From the UHGV virus genome UHGV-0160852: 16,276 bases of DNA, one strand, 5' to 3'. Both the position numbers and the translations under genes were made by a program. Positions 2,236 through 16,021 of the stretch are shown in pieces. Positions within the stretch are counted from its first letter, which is position 1. Every line of letters begins with the position of its first letter. The DNA is from a virus. The notes beneath the pieces were generated by a model. It searched no databases. It was not told the DNA's origin and saw nothing but the letters and a program-made list of their open reading frames with translations.

Positions 2236-3291
2236 TCAAGCTTTTACAATGACGCCGATACCCATTACCCGATCCAGAAAACGAGCCCACAGCTCTAACT
2301 GAGTGCCATATTTCTTTTCGAACGCTGATGTATTGGCGTGTAATTCATCGTGATGCACTCTGCACAGTGGTATCACGAAGAGATCATGGGCCTTGGTGCC
2401 AGTTCCCCCCAGACCATTCCCTATTATATGGTGTGGATCGTCTGATGGTTGCCTACAGCATTCACATGGCTGAGTTTTAACCCAACGTGTGTAAACTTCG
2501 CAGGTCCAGCGCCGGCGCTTCGGGCGGCGCATAAATGATTCGGGGCTGTTCGGATCGACACTAAGCCTCAGAATGGGTTTACTTTCAATCTGAGGTTGCT
2601 CAATGAGTACGCTGGCGTCCGCCAGGTCTATGCCCTCAACAAGATCCTGAAGGATTTCACCTGCAGCAAATGACGGGACAATATCGCTATCCTTATAAAC
2701 GGACAGGAAAGGTTCCTCAGGCAGTCTTAAGGCCTGTTGCGCCATCGTCTCGGTTATTGCGTCAGCAATGCCGGATTTCACAGCCCACCAGCAGAGCTCC
2801 GCCATCGATAATTCTCGCTCCTTATTGTATCCAAGGCTGATCAGCACCCTTTCAATCACCCACTGAACCAGATTCTGATAAGCCAGCTCTGACAACATTT
2901 CGGTGGTCTGCTCACGTAATTCATTATCACAATGCCAGCAGACAACCATGGCGCCAGGCGGATGCCGCATAGTCACTAATTCATGGTGGTGATAGTGGGA
3001 ATGCGGGTACTGGCACTCTCTGACATGTCGTAGAAGCCAGGCCTCAAGAGCGTTAATTCCACCAGCTGCGTTAATAACCCTCTCATCCCTCATGAAAAAA
3101 CGCAGAATGTCCATTTCTGCAAGGGGCTGACGTGCATCGGCGATCCGCCCAGTGGGCAGTGTTTTCATCTTCTCTGGCTGACGTTCTATCAGGACACGGC
3201 CGCCGGTAAAGAGAGACATCAATTCGCGGCCTGGTTTGAAAAGAACAACGCCCAGGCGCGGCACAATTTCCGGAGTAAGCAATGCTCGCAC
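2236..3291 (-). CDS. DUF968 / YdfU-like phage protein with C-terminal Cys/His (HNH-like) cluster
   Basis: 351-aa ORF immediately upstream of Q, the position of ydfU-type genes in lambdoid prophages; C-terminal CECCRQPSDDPHHI...LCRVHHDELH resembles a zinc-stabilised HNH-like motif. GTG start at 3291 preceded by GGGGGG; an alternative ATG lies at 3219. Confidence 0.75.
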   Translation of the reverse strand: MRALLTPEIVPRLGVVLFKPGRELMSLFTGGRVLIERQPEKMKTLPTGRIADARQPLAEMDILRFFMRDERVINAAGGINALEAWLLRHVRECQYPHSHYHHHELVTMRHPPGAMVVCWHCDNELREQTTEMLSELAYQNLVQWVIERVLISLGYNKERELSMAELCWWAVKSGIADAITETMAQQALRLPEEPFLSVYKDSDIVPSFAAGEILQDLVEGIDLADASVLIEQPQIESKPILRLSVDPNSPESFMRRPKRRRWTCEVYTRWVKTQPCECCRQPSDDPHHIIGNGLGGTGTKAHDLFVIPLCRVHHDELHANTSAFEKKYGTQLELWARFLDRVMGIGVIVKA

Positions 3292-3299
3292 AATCCCCC

Positions 3300-3824
3300 C
3301 TAAACAGTCAGATCTTTAAGCTTCTGCACGGCTTTACCAACTTCAGCCATAGCATCTACGAACTCGTCAAACTTCCTGCTGGCCATTCCATATGCCTGGA
3401 GAATCTCCAACTTCAAGGGATCGAGCTGTTTCTTAATTTCTGCACGATCCCCGGCTTTTTTCTCCGCTTCCTCTGCCGCTTTGATCAAGGCGTCAGCCTG
3501 TTTACGTAATGCTTCCGGAGTTACTTCGAGTTGTTTATTCATTTTGCATTCCATCGTCGGCTGAGGAGGTGTCATTACAGGCGCCACAGATTTGTGACCA
3601 TATTTCGGGTGGTGCAAGGTAGTAGACCTTCCATCATCTATCACGCAGAGCATCCCGCTTTCCCGGATTATTTCGATCAGGGTCTCTTTTTCTTTGCGAT
3701 TGAGCCCACTGTATGCCGCCACTTTGTGCGTCAGGTGGGTTAGCGTTGCGCCTTCTGGTTGCCTCTCTACAAAACGCTTTACCCTGGAAAGCACTGGTTG
3801 CAGGTGTGGGGGAGTCATTCTCAT
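3300..3824 (-). CDS. hypothetical nin-region protein (N-terminal winged-helix-like segment, C-terminal predicted coiled coil)
   Basis: ORF track 3300..3830; start placed at the ATG at 3824 with AAGGGG 5 nt upstream. Contains a duplicated MTPP(H/Q)..QP motif. No family assignment. Confidence 0.65.
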   Translation of the reverse strand: MRMTPPHLQPVLSRVKRFVERQPEGATLTHLTHKVAAYSGLNRKEKETLIEIIRESGMLCVIDDGRSTTLHHPKYGHKSVAPVMTPPQPTMECKMNKQLEVTPEALRKQADALIKAAEEAEKKAGDRAEIKKQLDPLKLEILQAYGMASRKFDEFVDAMAEVGKAVQKLKDLTV

Positions 3825-11220: not shown

Positions 11221-11223
11221 GTA

Positions 11224-11301
11224 TGTACCTCCTGTGTACATATTACACGAAAGCAATGAACCTTCAAGGTACTTGTACCTTTAAGGTACATGCGGTTAAA
11301 T
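11224..11301. promoter_or_regulatory. OR-like operator/promoter region: three 17-bp TGTACC-N5-GGTACA-type operators with divergent PR and PRM
   Basis: Operators TGTACCTCCTGTGTACA (11224-11240), TGAACCTTCAAGGTACT (11257-11273) and perfect TGTACCTTTAAGGTACA (11274-11290). Minus-strand PR: -35 TTGAAG, 16-bp spacer, -10 TAATAT, then the cro SD. Plus-strand PRM: -35 TTGTAC (11273-11278), 17-bp spacer, -10 TTAAAT (11296-11301), implying a leaderless cI mRNA starting at the ATG at 11308. Confidence 0.7.
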
Positions 11302-11307
11302 TTCAAT

Positions 11308-11982
11308 ATGAAAACAATCCAGGAAATCAGGCGGTTAAACGCCAGAAAATTGCGCGATGGTGTAGGCGGGAATATCTTCTTCGCCAACATGATTGATCGT
11401 GAGCCGACTCAAACAAGCCGGTTCATGGGTGACGGTGCGACAAAGAACATTGGTGATGCTATGGCAAGACACATTGAAAAATGTTTCGACTTGCCAACTG
11501 GTTGGTTAGATCAGGAGCACCAAACTACCAATGTAGCTAAAACTCCTGACGTCTCTGATACAAGCAGGGACATCACCATGGTTCCGGTAATATCCTGGGT
11601 ACAAGCAGGAGCATGGACAGAAGCTGGCTATGCTGAGGTTGATTTGAATAGTACAGAAAACTATCCCTGTCCTGTCCCCTGTGGGCCAATGACATATATT
11701 CTTCGTGTTATTGGTGATTCAATGATCGATGAATACAGGCCTGGAGATATGATTTTTGTTGATCCAGAGATAGCTGCAGTACACGGAGATGATGTCATTG
11801 CATTGATGCATGATTCTGGTGAGACGACATTTAAGCGGCTTATTGAGGATGCAGGACAACGTTACCTTAAAGCTCTGAACTCGAACTGGCCAGAGCCGTA
11901 CATTAAAATTAATGGCAATTGTTCAATTATTGGTACTGTGATTTTTTCTGGTAAACCCAGGCGGTATAGAACAAAAATTTGA
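11308..11982 (+). CDS. cI: CI-like prophage repressor with C-terminal S24 (LexA-like) autopeptidase domain
   Basis: C-terminal RVIGDSMIDEYRPGDMIFVDP (catalytic Ser in GDSM) and ETTFKRL (Lys) are the S24 dyad; divergent from cro across operators. Start at 11308 preferred (leaderless from PRM); track start at 11290 lies inside an operator. Confidence 0.9.
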   Translation: MKTIQEIRRLNARKLRDGVGGNIFFANMIDREPTQTSRFMGDGATKNIGDAMARHIEKCFDLPTGWLDQEHQTTNVAKTPDVSDTSRDITMVPVISWVQAGAWTEAGYAEVDLNSTENYPCPVPCGPMTYILRVIGDSMIDEYRPGDMIFVDPEIAAVHGDDVIALMHDSGETTFKRLIEDAGQRYLKALNSNWPEPYIKINGNCSIIGTVIFSGKPRRYRTKI

Positions 11983-11996
11983 CCGTTAACAACAGA

Positions 11997-12019
11997 CCTG
12001 CTTCGGCAGGTTTTTTTAT
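11997..12019 (+). terminator. rho-independent terminator after the repressor gene
   Basis: Stem ACCTGC / GCAGGT with TTCG tetraloop followed by TTTTTTT, 15 bp after the cI stop. Confidence 0.8.
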
Positions 12020-12022
12020 ACT

Positions 12023-12056
12023 TGACAATGTACCCATTCGGTACATAATGTACCTA
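12023..12056 (+). promoter_or_regulatory. PL-like early promoter with OL operator: -35 TTGACA, 16-bp spacer, -10 CATAAT, overlapped by TGTACCCATTCGGTACA
   Basis: Near-consensus sigma70 hexamers at 12023-12028 and 12045-12050; the 17-bp palindrome at 12030-12046 has the same TGTACC-N5-GGTACA architecture as the OR sites, plus an extra GTACC half-site at 12051-12055. Confidence 0.65.
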
Positions 12057-12117
12057 AAAGAAACAGCGGACAGGTAGGATGATTCGCTAAGCAACATACC
12101 AGTAGAGGTATCTCAAG

Positions 12118-12207
12118 ATGGACAAAGCATACGAAGAATATTTTGAAGGTCTGGCGGAAGGTGAAGAAGCTCTGAGCTATGCCGAATTCGTCGAAGCACT
12201 TTCCTAA
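12118..12207 (+). CDS. possible 29-aa acidic peptide (MDKAYEEYFEGLAEGEEALSYAEFVEALS)
   Basis: First ATG after the predicted PL start site, with AGAGGT about 9 nt upstream; below the ORF-track length cutoff. No family support. Confidence 0.2.
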   Translation: MDKAYEEYFEGLAEGEEALSYAEFVEALS

Positions 12208-12921
12208 ACATGGCGAAAGCCGACAGCGTTGAAGGCGATTTTCTCGGTTTGCGCGCTAAACAATAGCGGGGGTGAAATCGGGGCGGAGAAGCAGAATCCG
12301 CGATGTCGGGACTTGATACTTCCGGCCATACCAACAAGCCGAATGATCGCGTAACGATCCTTTGCATCTGCCCCGGCGAGGTGGCGCCGCCGGACCGGGG
12401 TAGATGAATCGTAAACAACATGAAAGCGCATTCCATCTTCCATCGGTCGTGGGGATCGGTTTGTAACTGAAGGAGTGCGCTTCCAGTTGTGAACGGCAAT
12501 ATTCACAACCGTTGTATGGCACATGCAGCGTTAGCAGCCCGGATGGTTCCCTTGAAGTTCCATGCGCTATCCGGACAACTGGAATGTGCAAGCCAAGTGT
12601 TTCAGGCACGACGTGCGCCCCACCAGCGCGGCGAAATGGTGTGACGCCCGGGAAGAGTCCGGGACACAACAGGTAAGAGCACTCCCGCCACACGATGCTG
12701 AAACCCAAGCGCCATGTGGATGCGCCGAAAAGCTACGACGGGGCGTTGGTAGAAGATCGGAGTGCTCTTTCCGTTGTGGTAATTGCGGCTATGCGCACGT
12801 GACGAGCTAACCCGTTCATGGAATGCGTTTCCGGGCAGTGTGACGTCGTCGGTTATTGGCTAAACCCGGCAGGTGGAGGCACCACCGCCACAACTTAGTT
12901 AACTGTGCTGTGTGTAGTCTT

Positions 12922-12991
12922 GGCGGTTATCCAGTTTTCCACTATCCAAAGGAGGAAGAGGATAACGTTCTGATGGATAACCGCCCTTTTT
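12922..12991 (+). terminator. long hairpin (11-bp stem GGCGGTTATCC / GGATAACCGCC) followed by CTTTTT; possible attenuator
   Basis: Perfect 11-bp inverted repeat with a ~42-nt loop; the loop holds a second copy of GGATAACG that could pair with the 5' arm instead, giving mutually exclusive structures. Confidence 0.35.
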
Positions 12992-13096
12992 ACACAATAC
13001 AAAAGAGCATCACCGGGCGACGGGCTCATTACCCAATCCACCCGGGCGGCATCCAAACCGCAGGTGCTCTTCTGTGTTGTGTACGGAGAAATTCCC

Positions 13097-13115
13097 GGCG
13101 GTGGCAGCCGCCTTT
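13097..13115 (+). terminator. short GC hairpin (GGCGG-TG / GGCA tetraloop) followed by TTT, about 15 nt upstream of the first early gene
   Basis: 6-bp G/C stem with only three trailing T; a weak terminator or structural element overlapping the approach to the gene's ribosome-binding site. Confidence 0.3.
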
Positions 13116-13130
13116 CGAGAGGGTAAAACC

Positions 13131-13502
13131 ATGAGTAATGATCGCATGACAGTCGTGCCCGATTTCCTGGGTGAACTGGACGCCGGCGTATTCATGAACA
13201 AGATTGCGGCGGCTCTTAATACCACCGCGCTCGGCGTTCTGAACAATGGCAACAAAGGCAAGGTTGTCCTCACCTTTGATTTTGAGCGTATGGGCAACTC
13301 TGTTGAAGAGAAGCGCGTCAAGATCAAGCACAAGCTGAACTACAGCACCCCAACTCCCCGCGGCAAAGCGTCGGAAGAGGACACCACCGAAACACCAATG
13401 TGGGTTAACAAAGGCGGCAAGCTCACAATCCTGCAAGAGGATCAGGGGCAACTCTTCGGTATCACCGGCGCGGTGGACGGAAAGCTTAAAGCGGCTCAGT
13501 GA
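13131..13502 (+). CDS. hypothetical early protein (123 aa), first gene of the PL operon
   Basis: ATG at 13131 with GAGAGGG 7 nt upstream; protein-like composition. Size and position resemble yfdP of the E. coli CPS-53 prophage, from memory only. Confidence 0.75.
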   Translation: MSNDRMTVVPDFLGELDAGVFMNKIAAALNTTALGVLNNGNKGKVVLTFDFERMGNSVEEKRVKIKHKLNYSTPTPRGKASEEDTTETPMWVNKGGKLTILQEDQGQLFGITGAVDGKLKAAQ

Positions 13503-15243: not shown

Positions 15244-16021
15244 AAACTCGATCGATGCTTATGGCGCCAGCGGCAAGACAAACGTTCTGATGTTCGAGCC
15301 GGAAAATCTGCATATTGTCACTGACAAGGCCCACCCGCTTTACGATGAGCGAGTCAATCTGCCGATCGATGAAGGGATGGTGTTGAATATCAAAGAGCTG
15401 GGTGTTCTTGAGCCGATTATTGTCTGGAAAGACCCTGAAAAGGGGCTCACCTGTGTGGTTGTCGGTCGTCAGCGCGTTAAACATACGCTGGAAGCCAATA
15501 AGCTCCTGCTGAAAGAAGGCAAAACACCGCTGCTTGTTCCTGGAGTCGTTAAGCGTGGTTCGGCAAACCAAATGGCCAAATATATGGTCAGCGAAAACGA
15601 AATCCGCCGACCTGATACGCCATTAGGTCGAGCTAAGAAAATGTCAGACGCGCTGGATCGTGGTCATGACGAGGACGACCTTGCGGTGTTGTTTGGCTGT
15701 AGCGTTCAGACTGTCCGTGCAACGCTGTCACTACTCGATGCTACCCAGGCTGTTAGGGAGGCGGTAGAGTCTGGCACAGTTACCGTTACCCAGGCGCGTC
15801 AGCTTGGCGCGCTACCACCTGAAGAGCAGCGGGCAAAAGTGGCAGAAATCGAGCTGGCGACAGCTGGAACCAAAGGCCATGAAAAATCCCGTCGGCAGCG
15901 TCAGGTTCTCGGTGAGGCAAAACCGCGCATCAAATCACGTAAGGAAATCACAAAAGCCCTCGAAGATGCCAGCGGCGAATATGCCGAGGCTCTGCTCTGG
16001 GTACTTGGGGAGGCGAAATGA
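15236..16021 (+). CDS. ParB-like N-terminal (ParB/Srx nuclease-fold) domain protein
   Basis: LGVLEPIIVWKDPEKGLTCVVVGRQRVKHTL resembles the ParB box region (QPI-V-R ... GERR-RA), followed by a helical, basic C-terminal half. Confidence 0.75.
   Translation: MAKNSIDAYGASGKTNVLMFEPENLHIVTDKAHPLYDERVNLPIDEGMVLNIKELGVLEPIIVWKDPEKGLTCVVVGRQRVKHTLEANKLLLKEGKTPLLVPGVVKRGSANQMAKYMVSENEIRRPDTPLGRAKKMSDALDRGHDEDDLAVLFGCSVQTVRATLSLLDATQAVREAVESGTVTVTQARQLGALPPEEQRAKVAEIELATAGTKGHEKSRRQRQVLGEAKPRIKSRKEITKALEDASGEYAEALLWVLGEAK

Follow-up and report, generated by a model that had tools for sequence, protein, structure and literature searches.

A largely noncoding leader follows the repressor-controlled promoter

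We analyzed the virus genome UHGV-0160852 as a single stretch of 16,276 nucleotides (nt), called the window below, and focused on the leader (positions 12057–13130, plus strand) that heads its early-left operon and that probably belongs to the type known from dicBF in the Qin cryptic prophage of Escherichia coli. About 1 kb separates the PL-type promoter from the first long gene downstream, which is yfdP-like (ATG at 13131) and is followed by a DUF2303/YfdQ gene. On the other side lies a cI-type gene (11290–11982; Peptidase_S24 in Pfam), closed by a terminator at 11994–12013, after which comes the promoter with its CI-type operator (12022–12066, plus strand). The –35 (12022–12027) and –10 (12044–12049) elements, TTGACA-16-CATAAT, match 11 of 12 consensus positions. 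They are overlapped by a perfect palindrome, ATGTACC-N5-GGTACAT (12028–12046), and a second, weaker operator site occupies 12048–12066. Three sites of this operator type lie in the cI–cro intergenic region (11223–11291), and the whole window contains six matches to it where 0.4 would be expected by chance; the set consists of three sites between the cro-like and cI-like genes plus one perfect and one weak site at PL. The initial annotation of this DNA had described a near-consensus promoter overlapped by a CI-type operator right after the cI terminator, and these data agree with it. No internal promoter-like site was found on the plus strand of 12057–13130, within which the G+C content climbs from about 0.40 to 0.55–0.59.

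The first open reading frame (ORF) after PL encodes an acidic protein of 29 amino acids, MDKAYEEYFEGLAEGEEALSYAEFVEALS (12118–12207, plus strand), preceded by a Shine-Dalgarno sequence, GAGG, at 12106–12109. Its product is 83% identical to YdfB of E. coli K-12 (E 6e-16 by BLASTP; also found by tblastn), and its DNA is kept in phiES15 and phage 204576. The initial annotation had stated that the leader holds no protein-like ORF in any frame, which this YdfB homolog contradicts, and that no N-like Arg-rich gene follows PL, which is correct: the next genes are the yfdP-like and DUF2303 genes. Homologs of YdfA, YdfC, and DicB are absent from the window operon. By sequence comparison, 12208–13130 can be excluded as coding because frames shift and stops arise in its homologs, 1–2 nt indels are frequent, and substitutions among the homologs show no codon periodicity. 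A 54-amino-acid ORF at 12973–13134, which overlaps the yfdP-like start via ATGA in a manner resembling translational coupling, is shifted or stopped in most homologs and is probably not a gene. Minus-strand ORFs at 12113–12499 and 12256–12708 have no Pfam match.

The leader is conserved piecewise in more than 130 phage records, and BLAST detected pieces of it in 134 of 5,426 E. coli genomes. In searches of phage and E. coli collections the whole stretch was never matched, only pieces with sharp borders (12207–12414, 12415–12491, ~12510–12683, 12760–12895, and 12984–13140), which are shared with phages of Klebsiella, Escherichia, Salmonella, and Shigella and with E. coli genomes. Annotated relatives have an unannotated gap of 500–960 nt at the same position, between the repressor and the early-left genes. 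The genes 3′ of homologous leaders differ (yfdP/yfdQ, rdgC, or parB), and yfdP-family genes follow them in LLS and in E. coli prophages. Two checks that had been suggested for this region gave clear outcomes: related prophages do conserve the sequence, in pieces and with covariation, and a scan against Rfam returned no family at threshold. ARAGORN called no tRNA or transfer-messenger RNA (tmRNA) in the window, and the leader gave no tRNA match at E up to 10. The proposal of a large structured RNA therefore stands in part. The leader is conserved, structured, and, apart from the 90-base ydfB-like ORF, noncoding; it is an array of interchangeable modules, not a single RNA.

Module E is a conserved five-helix RNA

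We identified one of these modules, module E (12759–12894, plus strand), as a cloverleaf-like RNA of five helices by pattern search, alignment, and covariance modeling. Its helices are P1 (12773–12780 with 12887–12894), P2 (12785–12789 with 12795–12800), P3 (12801–12804 with 12844–12847), P4 (12848–12852 with 12866–12870), and P5 (12872–12876 with 12882–12886, loop AGGCA). At least 120 viral contigs contain the exact 5′-core pattern. A MAFFT alignment built from 40 diverse members folds with five helices at a single junction. GUUGUGG/CCACAAC form the closing stem; a short hairpin comes next, then a long arm that varies and a fourth hairpin, and last a 3′ hairpin whose loop, GGAGGCACC, is invariant. 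In the module E alignment (A2), pairing holds for 98.3% of cells, double changes occur in 82 cells compared with 21 in shuffles, and shifting the register collapses pairing to 24–55%. G-U pairs exceed A-C pairs here (75 versus 4), as they do in the H0 helices described below (58 versus 12), from which we conclude that the plus strand is the RNA.

A covariance model built from the family (R1) scored the window copy at 127 bits. Neither R1 nor the pattern search found a copy of module E, of an H0 hairpin, or of their shared motif on the PR (minus-strand) side of the window. The matches of a genome-wide pattern scan, ~35 of them expected by chance, were checked with R1, which confirmed only those in the groups named next. 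Among species-representative genomes, module E is confined to Enterobacterales, one Aeromonadaceae contig, and one probably mislabelled contig. The last (L174 5958–6099), labelled Chryseobacterium sp. 18061, carries a 132-bit member of a kind otherwise typical of Enterobacterales prophages; contamination or mislabelling is the probable explanation.

Of 100 distinct contexts, 15 place module E beside tRNA genes, and in all 15 the strand is the same; these copies belong to the P1-like phage D6 and to virulent phages of the T1-like and LASTA-like kinds. Copies that head tRNA clusters or lie within them include those of LASTA (L005 2401–2523), Sf11 (L006 2511–2621), D6 (L004 ~1322–1460 and 2501–2629), and L053; in LASTA, module E ends 4 nt before tRNA-Arg(tct). 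In the T1-like contigs L017 (~3384–3410) and L018 (reverse strand), module E is directly followed by what seems a 3′ tRNA fragment, AATTCGAATCCTGTCGCGGGAACCA, with no remainder of the gene, possibly left behind by recombination in a tRNA gene. Module E is not matched by the tRNA, YrlA, or tmRNA models of Rfam.

The boxA-like motifs are strands of conserved hairpins

The motif GTGCKCTY occurs on the plus strand at 12475, 12762, and 13064, and its complement at 12675. The sequence GGAGUGCKCUUYCNGUUGUG is present three times in the sense orientation (starting at 12472, 12759, and 13063) and three times as its complement (12414–12434, 12664–12685, and 12991–13014), which defines three hairpins of ~20 bp that we named H0-1, H0-2, and H0-3. 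Both boxA-like motifs of the initial annotation are among these copies, with two amendments: the first, TGCTCTTTCC, occupies 12763–12772, one base from the position given, and neither is free-standing, each being a strand of a helix.

H0-1 (12414–12491, plus strand) pairs 12414–12434 (AACAACAUGAAAGCGCAUUCC) with the boxA-like 3′ strand 12472–12491 (GGAGUGCGCUUCCAGUUGUG) and forms a self-contained 77-nt module, with sharp homology borders at 12415 and 12491 in 62 loci. It comprises 23 pairs, four of them with compensatory changes, and the minimum-free-energy fold of the complete leader contains it. An E. coli prophage leader, L003, carries the same 77-nt module (window 12415–12491) twice, at 2863–2942 and 3200–3280, which indicates that leader modules duplicate and shuffle. 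H0-2 (12664–12779, plus strand), a putative RNase III site, joins 12664–12685 (ACACAACAGGUAAGAGCACUCC) to 12759–12779 (GGAGUGCUCUUUCCGUUGUGG). H0-3 (12991–13083, plus strand) joins 12991–13014 (UACACAAUACAAAAGAGCAUCACC) to 13063–13083 (GGUGCUCUUCUGUGUUGUGUA), encloses two small hairpins, and lies directly 5′ of the yfdP-like ribosome-binding site. It is common to mEp460, SfII, and Stx2 phages, has 42 pairs of which seven are compensatory (36 sequences), and is likewise part of the minimum-free-energy fold.

An upstream partner for the boxA-like strand was found in 91 of 91 contexts of the module E family, 8–222 nt away and with a median duplex energy of –27 kcal/mol. An alignment of the H0 strands (A4) has 95% of its cells paired, with changes on both sides at 11 of 19 pairs, values to be read with the knowledge that the partner strand was chosen by a duplex search, which favors pairing. 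Given the slid-register controls and the fixed bulge pattern, we argue that the helix is real. The covariation extends to the boxA consensus itself: in LASTA, D6, L048, and L121 the consensus is lost while pairing is kept through joint changes on both strands, and GAGUGAGCUAC, GAGCGCCGUUU, GAACAUCCUUA, and GCGGCCCCUUU replace the motif in homologs with compensation in the partner strand. Because pairing survives the loss of the boxA consensus, we conclude that the helix, and not a NusB/NusE site, is what is conserved. A boxA/Nus site, which would be a conserved single-stranded (Y)GCUCUU(U)A and which had gained weight from the occurrence of the motif upstream of tRNA clusters, was accordingly set aside as the main explanation; eight of its nine positions match, but the sequence is paired in all 91 contexts and covaries away from it. 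The UGCUCUU(U) of the window followed by a hairpin looks superficially like the boxA–boxB arrangement of lambda and rrn nut sites. Unlike those sites, the motif is the 3′ strand of a helix, covaries with its partner, and is not accompanied by an N-like protein.

The sequence GUUGUGG ends the 3′ strand of H0-2 and is also the 5′ strand of the module E closing stem, so that two conserved pairings compete for it. The H0 helices can be compared with the RNase III hairpins of the lambda N leader and of T7 early mRNAs, which are likewise helices of ~20 bp with small internal loops between transcript units; as in those phages, one helix of the window stands in the 5′ untranslated region (UTR) of the first long gene. 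The window differs from the lambda and T7 hairpins in that the helix sequence is conserved across unrelated phages and in that the 3′ strand doubles as the 5′ strand of the next domain's closing stem, a conserved two-way choice.

The leader also holds a minimal closing-stem hairpin, GUUGUGAA-N8-UUCACAAC (12486–12509, plus strand), whose 5′ strand is shared with H0-1. Its pattern occurs once in the window (0.05 matches expected), and R1 scored 12472–12509, which comprises the 5′ motif and this simple hairpin, at 20 bits (E 1e-4), the only further copy in the window. In Kp4866-type leaders (L007 ~3330–3375, Kp4866-6, and relatives), the loop of H0-2 contains a hairpin with the canonical T-loop sequence GGUCCGUUCGAUUCGGAC, a tRNA-derived piece. 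A tRNA-like element (L031 1116–1241 and L158 11817–11943) adjoins the 5′ side of the H0 hairpin and module E in leaders of this type. Its acceptor, D, and T arms are intact, and a 68-nt insertion replaces the anticodon arm; the Rfam tRNA model scored it at 39.9 bits (gathering score 29), and ARAGORN did not call it.

A DicF-like segment and terminator follow module E

Downstream of module E is a segment resembling the small RNA (sRNA) DicF (12906–12991, plus strand), composed of the seed UGCUGUGUGUAGUCUU (12906–12921), a terminator hairpin (12922–12932 with 12975–12985), and a U-run (12987–12991). The seed is conserved and single-stranded in the fold. In 56 of 100 contexts, module E is followed by the same conserved seed, a GGCGGU...CCGCC hairpin, and a U-run. 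The window segment thus has the single-stranded 5′ seed, GGCGGU...CCGCC terminator hairpin, and U-run of the DicF type, and it has them in the operon of a PL-analog promoter next to the immunity repressor; among upstream ORFs of the ydfA/ydfB/ydfC type, YdfB alone is present. DicF-like segments can be aligned with K-12 dicF (alignment A5). The Rfam DicF model (RF00039) scored window positions 12909–12986 at 16.5 bits (E 1.4), homologs at the same position at 33–34 bits, and K-12 dicF at 76.7 bits. We consider the matches after module E to be sub-threshold but non-random. A duplex-energy comparison of the DicF-like seed with the E. coli ftsZ leader was of a kind in which K-12 DicF itself is not significant.

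The 12922–12991 hairpin bears on three further points of the initial annotation. Its 5′ strand includes GUUAUCC (12926–12932), which can pair with GGAUAAC at either 12960–12966 or 12975–12981, in agreement with a hairpin that has an alternative partner. As an intrinsic terminator between PL and the early-left genes, it also supports the view that the early operon needs read-through. The count of at least two terminator-like hairpins, by contrast, is borne out for one: 12922–12932/12975–12985 is followed by U5 (12987–12991), whereas 13097–13112 is followed by UUUCGAG and has no U-run. The terminator hairpin of the window carries AAGGAGG in its loop, and relatives instead have a plain short terminator. 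One might speculate that the 3′ strands of module E pair with the 5′ strand of the terminator to form a riboswitch-like attenuator, an idea drawn from two terminator types.

The leader matches the K-12 dicBF leader in position and general layout

In the K-12 Qin prophage the order is dicA, dicBp, ydfA/ydfB/ydfC, ~340 nt of untranslated RNA, dicF with its terminator, ~170 nt of untranslated RNA, and dicB, and dicBp has been described as lambda PL-like and repressed by DicA. We found that the window leader occupies the same position, directly after the immunity repressor and a PL-analog promoter, and that both leaders contain the YdfB small protein and a ~20-bp H0 hairpin with the same bulge pattern (in K-12, L180 2671–2694 with 2739–2758, –28.8 kcal/mol). 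Each also has a structured domain, a single-stranded seed, a GGCGGU...CCGCC hairpin, and a U-run, followed by the downstream genes. The two differ in that the window is without ydfA, ydfC, and dicB and has yfdP-like and yfdQ-like genes downstream, in the seed (UGCUGUGUGUAGUCUU versus UUUCUGGUGACGUUU in K-12 DicF), and in an insertion of ~25 nt in the window terminator hairpin relative to K-12 dicF. With R1 we detected a 62-bit match in K-12 between dicF and dicB (L180 2941–3082; NC_000913.3 1649440–1649581). This module E/STnc100-like RNA of K-12 is unannotated, and its closing helix is ~25 bp long.

The processing of the K-12 transcript has been described. Cleavage by RNase III gives a 190-nt DicF its 5′ end and, from read-through transcripts, a 72-nt DicF its 3′ end; RNase E makes a 53-nt DicF; and transcription ends at the dicF terminator, with partial read-through that needs no dedicated factor. 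DicF binds Hfq and acts as a repressor of ftsZ, xylR, and pykA. Counting back from the dicF 3′ end, we infer from the reported length and the sequence a 5′ end for the 190-nt species at L180 2746–2750, within the 3′ strand of H0 (2739–2758). On the same kind of evidence, the 3′ end of the 72-nt species would lie at about L180 2954, within the closing helix of the E-like RNA.

Module E is probably a divergent relative of STnc100

STnc100 and PasD are prophage sRNAs of Salmonella and E. coli with functions that are unknown or hypothesised; the STnc100 transcript has been observed both in cells and in vesicles, and PasD, its relative, is Hfq-bound. Their core has the parts of module E: a closing stem and a short 5′ hairpin, then a long, variable arm and a fourth hairpin, and finally a 3′ hairpin bearing the loop GGAGGCACC. 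Their plan of core, 3′ tail, and terminator is that of the window. Intermediate sequences connect the two groups. A Raoultella STnc100 locus (L158 3348–3484) scored 79.4 bits with the Rfam STnc100 model, above gathering, and 46.8 bits with R1; the K-12 RNA at L180 2941–3082 scored 34 bits with the STnc100 model; and the second D6 copy (L004 1336–1456) scored 39.6 bits. Because a chain of intermediates and a common core fold connect them, module E thus appears to be a divergent STnc100 subfamily beyond the reach of the Rfam model. The closing helices differ (GUUGUGG/CCACAAC in module E versus AUGGUG/CACCAU in STnc100), as do the locations: STnc100 and PasD have been described from late regions, near Q and downstream of stx2, whereas module E stands in the PL leader. 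Unlike STnc100 and PasD, the module E subfamily also reaches virulent T1-like, LASTA-like, and P1-like phages. The Pas sRNAs of the Zhu, Shabalina and Storz preprint, which gives the PasD–STnc100 link, were considered as the same loci and rejected, being located in late regions. A literature search by sequence strings returned unrelated primer matches only.

A dicBF-type leader is the favored explanation

The pieces of the leader are conserved, their helices covary, their transcribed strand is the plus strand, and they are homologous to the parts of the K-12 leader. We propose, with a probability that we put at roughly 0.68, that the window contains the leader of a dicBF-type early-left operon, with a DicF-like sRNA and an STnc100-type domain, processed by RNases III and E. 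Upon loss of the CI-type repressor, RNA polymerase would start at 12022–12049 and make a polycistronic RNA, of which the 29-amino-acid YdfB-like peptide would be translated first, followed by ~920 nt of untranslated, highly folded RNA. H0-1, H0-2, and H0-3 would serve as RNase III sites at which the transcript is cut into its modules. Cleavage at H0-2 would free GUUGUGG to pair with CCACAAC and close domain E, yielding a product of ~220 nt that comprises module E, the single-stranded seed, and the terminator hairpin, has its 3′ end at the terminator (12922–12991), and would be the analog of the 190-nt DicF species. RNase E may then cut the AU-rich linker at 12895–12905 to release a short, Hfq-type DicF-like sRNA. 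Polymerases that read through would express the yfdP-like and yfdQ-like genes and beyond, and the 5′ UTR of the yfdP-like mRNA would offer H0-3 for processing. Processing in the window prophage is here modeled on K-12, and the action of the short RNA as a base-pairing regulator and the role of module E are likewise presumptive.

Several observations weigh against this proposal. The window DicF-like segment scores under the gathering score of the model (16.5 versus 48 bits), and its seed is unlike that of K-12 DicF, so that it may have other targets or none. The STnc100 model (RF02076, gathering score 47) gave no match in 11950–13200 at E up to 10, and the STnc100 link of the window module rests on intermediates. 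The STnc100-like domain lies upstream of the terminator in the window and downstream of it in K-12. In the tRNA clusters, neither a DicF-like seed nor a terminator follows module E; since the family also occurs in virulent phages beside tRNA genes without them, module E must have a role of its own that a dicBF-type model leaves unexplained. Terminator read-through is not explained by the model either, and expression and cleavage in the window prophage are predictions made by analogy.

The initial annotation had called the leader a candidate undescribed phage noncoding RNA. This no longer holds, as the leader appears to be the counterpart of the Qin dicBF leader, with YdfB, an RNase III hairpin, and a DicF-like sRNA with its terminator, and to include a relative of STnc100; what is new, as far as sequence comparison indicates, is a DicF-like sRNA and an STnc100-type domain that have diverged past the Rfam thresholds. 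If correct, a dicBF-type leader would account for the "gene desert" that heads the early-left operon in N-less lambdoid phages (LLS, SfII/SfV-like and mEp460-like phages, and Klebsiella and E. coli prophages), and this group would have the same design as the long-studied dicBF locus. The long DicF precursor, STnc100/PasD, and the K-12 dicF–dicB RNA would then form one modular system of RNase III-bounded RNA domains. Apparent boxA motifs would be strands of processing helices, which bears on how N-less lambdoid phages pass early terminators. An RNA domain that is widespread in phages, with at least 120 viral contigs carrying it and no Rfam family matching it at threshold, becomes directly testable. 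The more interesting residue is the wide spread of the five-helix core together with its conserved switch with the RNase III hairpin.

Antitermination, a tRNA-like RNA, and a DNA element as alternatives

We weighed the dicBF-type leader against cis-acting processive antitermination, in which module E, with or without the boxA-like motif (NusB/NusE), would ride with polymerase past 12922–12991 and later terminators in the manner of HK022 put or an N-less nut site. An N-like gene is missing after PL, polymerase has to get past the terminator, and the genome paper on LLS, whose leader is a relative of that in the window, reports that N is lacking and raises put-like RNA-mediated antitermination, only as a possibility. 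Like HK022 put, the window RNA is noncoding, lies 3′ of an early promoter in a lambdoid phage without N, and has terminators downstream. The position of module E, which in 56 of 100 contexts precedes a conserved motif and an intrinsic terminator by 10–40 nt, the match of UGCUCUUU to eight of the nine positions of the rrn boxA UGCUCUUUA, and the placement of module E at the head of untranslated tRNA clusters, on the same strand, in virulent phages all fit antitermination as well. However, put RNAs, which suppress termination by binding the zinc-binding domain of the RNA polymerase beta-prime subunit, are ~70 nt long with two stems and occur at both PL and PR, whereas the window RNA is on the PL side only and its conserved part begins ~700 nt after the promoter. 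A put covariance model (R2) built from six put RNAs (HK022 putL and putR, HK639, phiEt88, CobraSix, and S9-5) had its best window match, with E 0.33, at 15560–15603, an unrelated site, and reached 6.7 bits (E 0.81) within the leader; BLAST with HK022 putL matched 21 phage records, none of which is among the matches listed for the window leader. Homology to put, which the initial annotation had suggested, therefore receives no support, and the PR operon has no copy of the element. Further evidence runs the same way: the boxA-like strand invariably has an upstream pairing partner, made before it during transcription, the motif covaries off the boxA consensus in the four phages and contigs named above (LASTA, D6, L048, and L121), the E-like RNA of K-12 sits on the downstream side of the dicF terminator, RNase III cleaves the same helices in K-12, and dicBF shows partial read-through that needs no dedicated factor. 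We consider antitermination quite improbable. A purely DNA-level origin, with decayed genes or elements resembling miniature inverted-repeat transposable elements (CACAAC...GTTGTG termini) that mark recombination or transposition junctions and have no RNA function, would explain the mosaic of sharp module borders at a repeated ~20-bp motif, the inverted repeats that the motif forms, and the duplication of the 77-nt unit (12415–12491) in L003. It is very hard to reconcile with the large excess of G-U over A-C pairs, which implies strand-specific selection, with a fixed orientation toward both the operon and the tRNA genes (15 of 15), with covariation in the internal helices of module E that are not part of any repeat, and with the cleavage of the homologous K-12 helices by RNase III in vivo; no transposase is associated with the modules. 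We regard it as scarcely credible.

Domain E could also be an autonomous, stable, tRNA-shaped RNA acting in trans, a decoy or scaffold for host factors that process, modify, or target tRNAs, with the PL leader as just one of several places where phages carry its gene. Its five helices around one junction, with a closing stem of 7–8 bp and a 5-bp hairpin beside the 3′ strand, resemble a class II tRNA, and its presence in tRNA clusters, always on the tRNA strand and in LASTA only 4 nt before tRNA-Arg, agrees with such a role, as do the genuinely tRNA-like element of related leaders (anticodon arm expanded by a 68-nt insertion), the detection of STnc100 as RNA in cells and vesicles, and the binding of PasD to Hfq. 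That the loop GGAGGCACC never varies, together with the junction sequence, points to a specific partner. Against it, the tRNA, YrlA, and tmRNA models of Rfam fail to match, the domain has neither a CCA end nor a T-loop consensus, and the partner is predicted only. We judge this explanation unlikely on its own, and it is compatible with a dicBF-type leader rather than opposed to it. A joint reading, which we put forward tentatively and consider rather improbable, treats the module E/STnc100-type core as a tRNA-derived domain with its own function, for which the choice between H0 and the closing stem would be a maturation switch and the GGAGGCACC loop and junction would be the binding site of a host factor, perhaps RNA polymerase, for antitermination, or a tRNA-handling or -targeting enzyme, for counter-defence or as a processing scaffold. 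Such a domain may have spread over temperate PL leaders, the K-12 dicF–dicB spacer, Stx phage late regions, and, in virulent T1-like, LASTA-like, and P1-like phages, their tRNA clusters.

Other structured modules of the leader

Two further pieces of the leader are structured. Module B (12208–12413, plus strand), common to 18 loci, is noncoding and contains a strong hairpin at 12365–12406; RNAalifold assigned it 51 pairs, seven with compensatory changes, and its homologs carry 1–2 nt indels and leave no plus-strand frame open. Module D (12492–12663, plus strand), a structured noncoding RNA common to 26–39 loci, has 35 pairs of which 10 are compensatory, shows many 1–2 nt indels and no codon periodicity, and can be closed by pairing of 12472–12491 with 12664–12685. 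At the 3′ end of the leader, we read from the sequence a hairpin, GGCGG-UGGCAG-CCGCC (13097–13112), and a Shine-Dalgarno sequence, GAGAGGG, ahead of the yfdP-like start at 13131 (13097–13133, plus strand).

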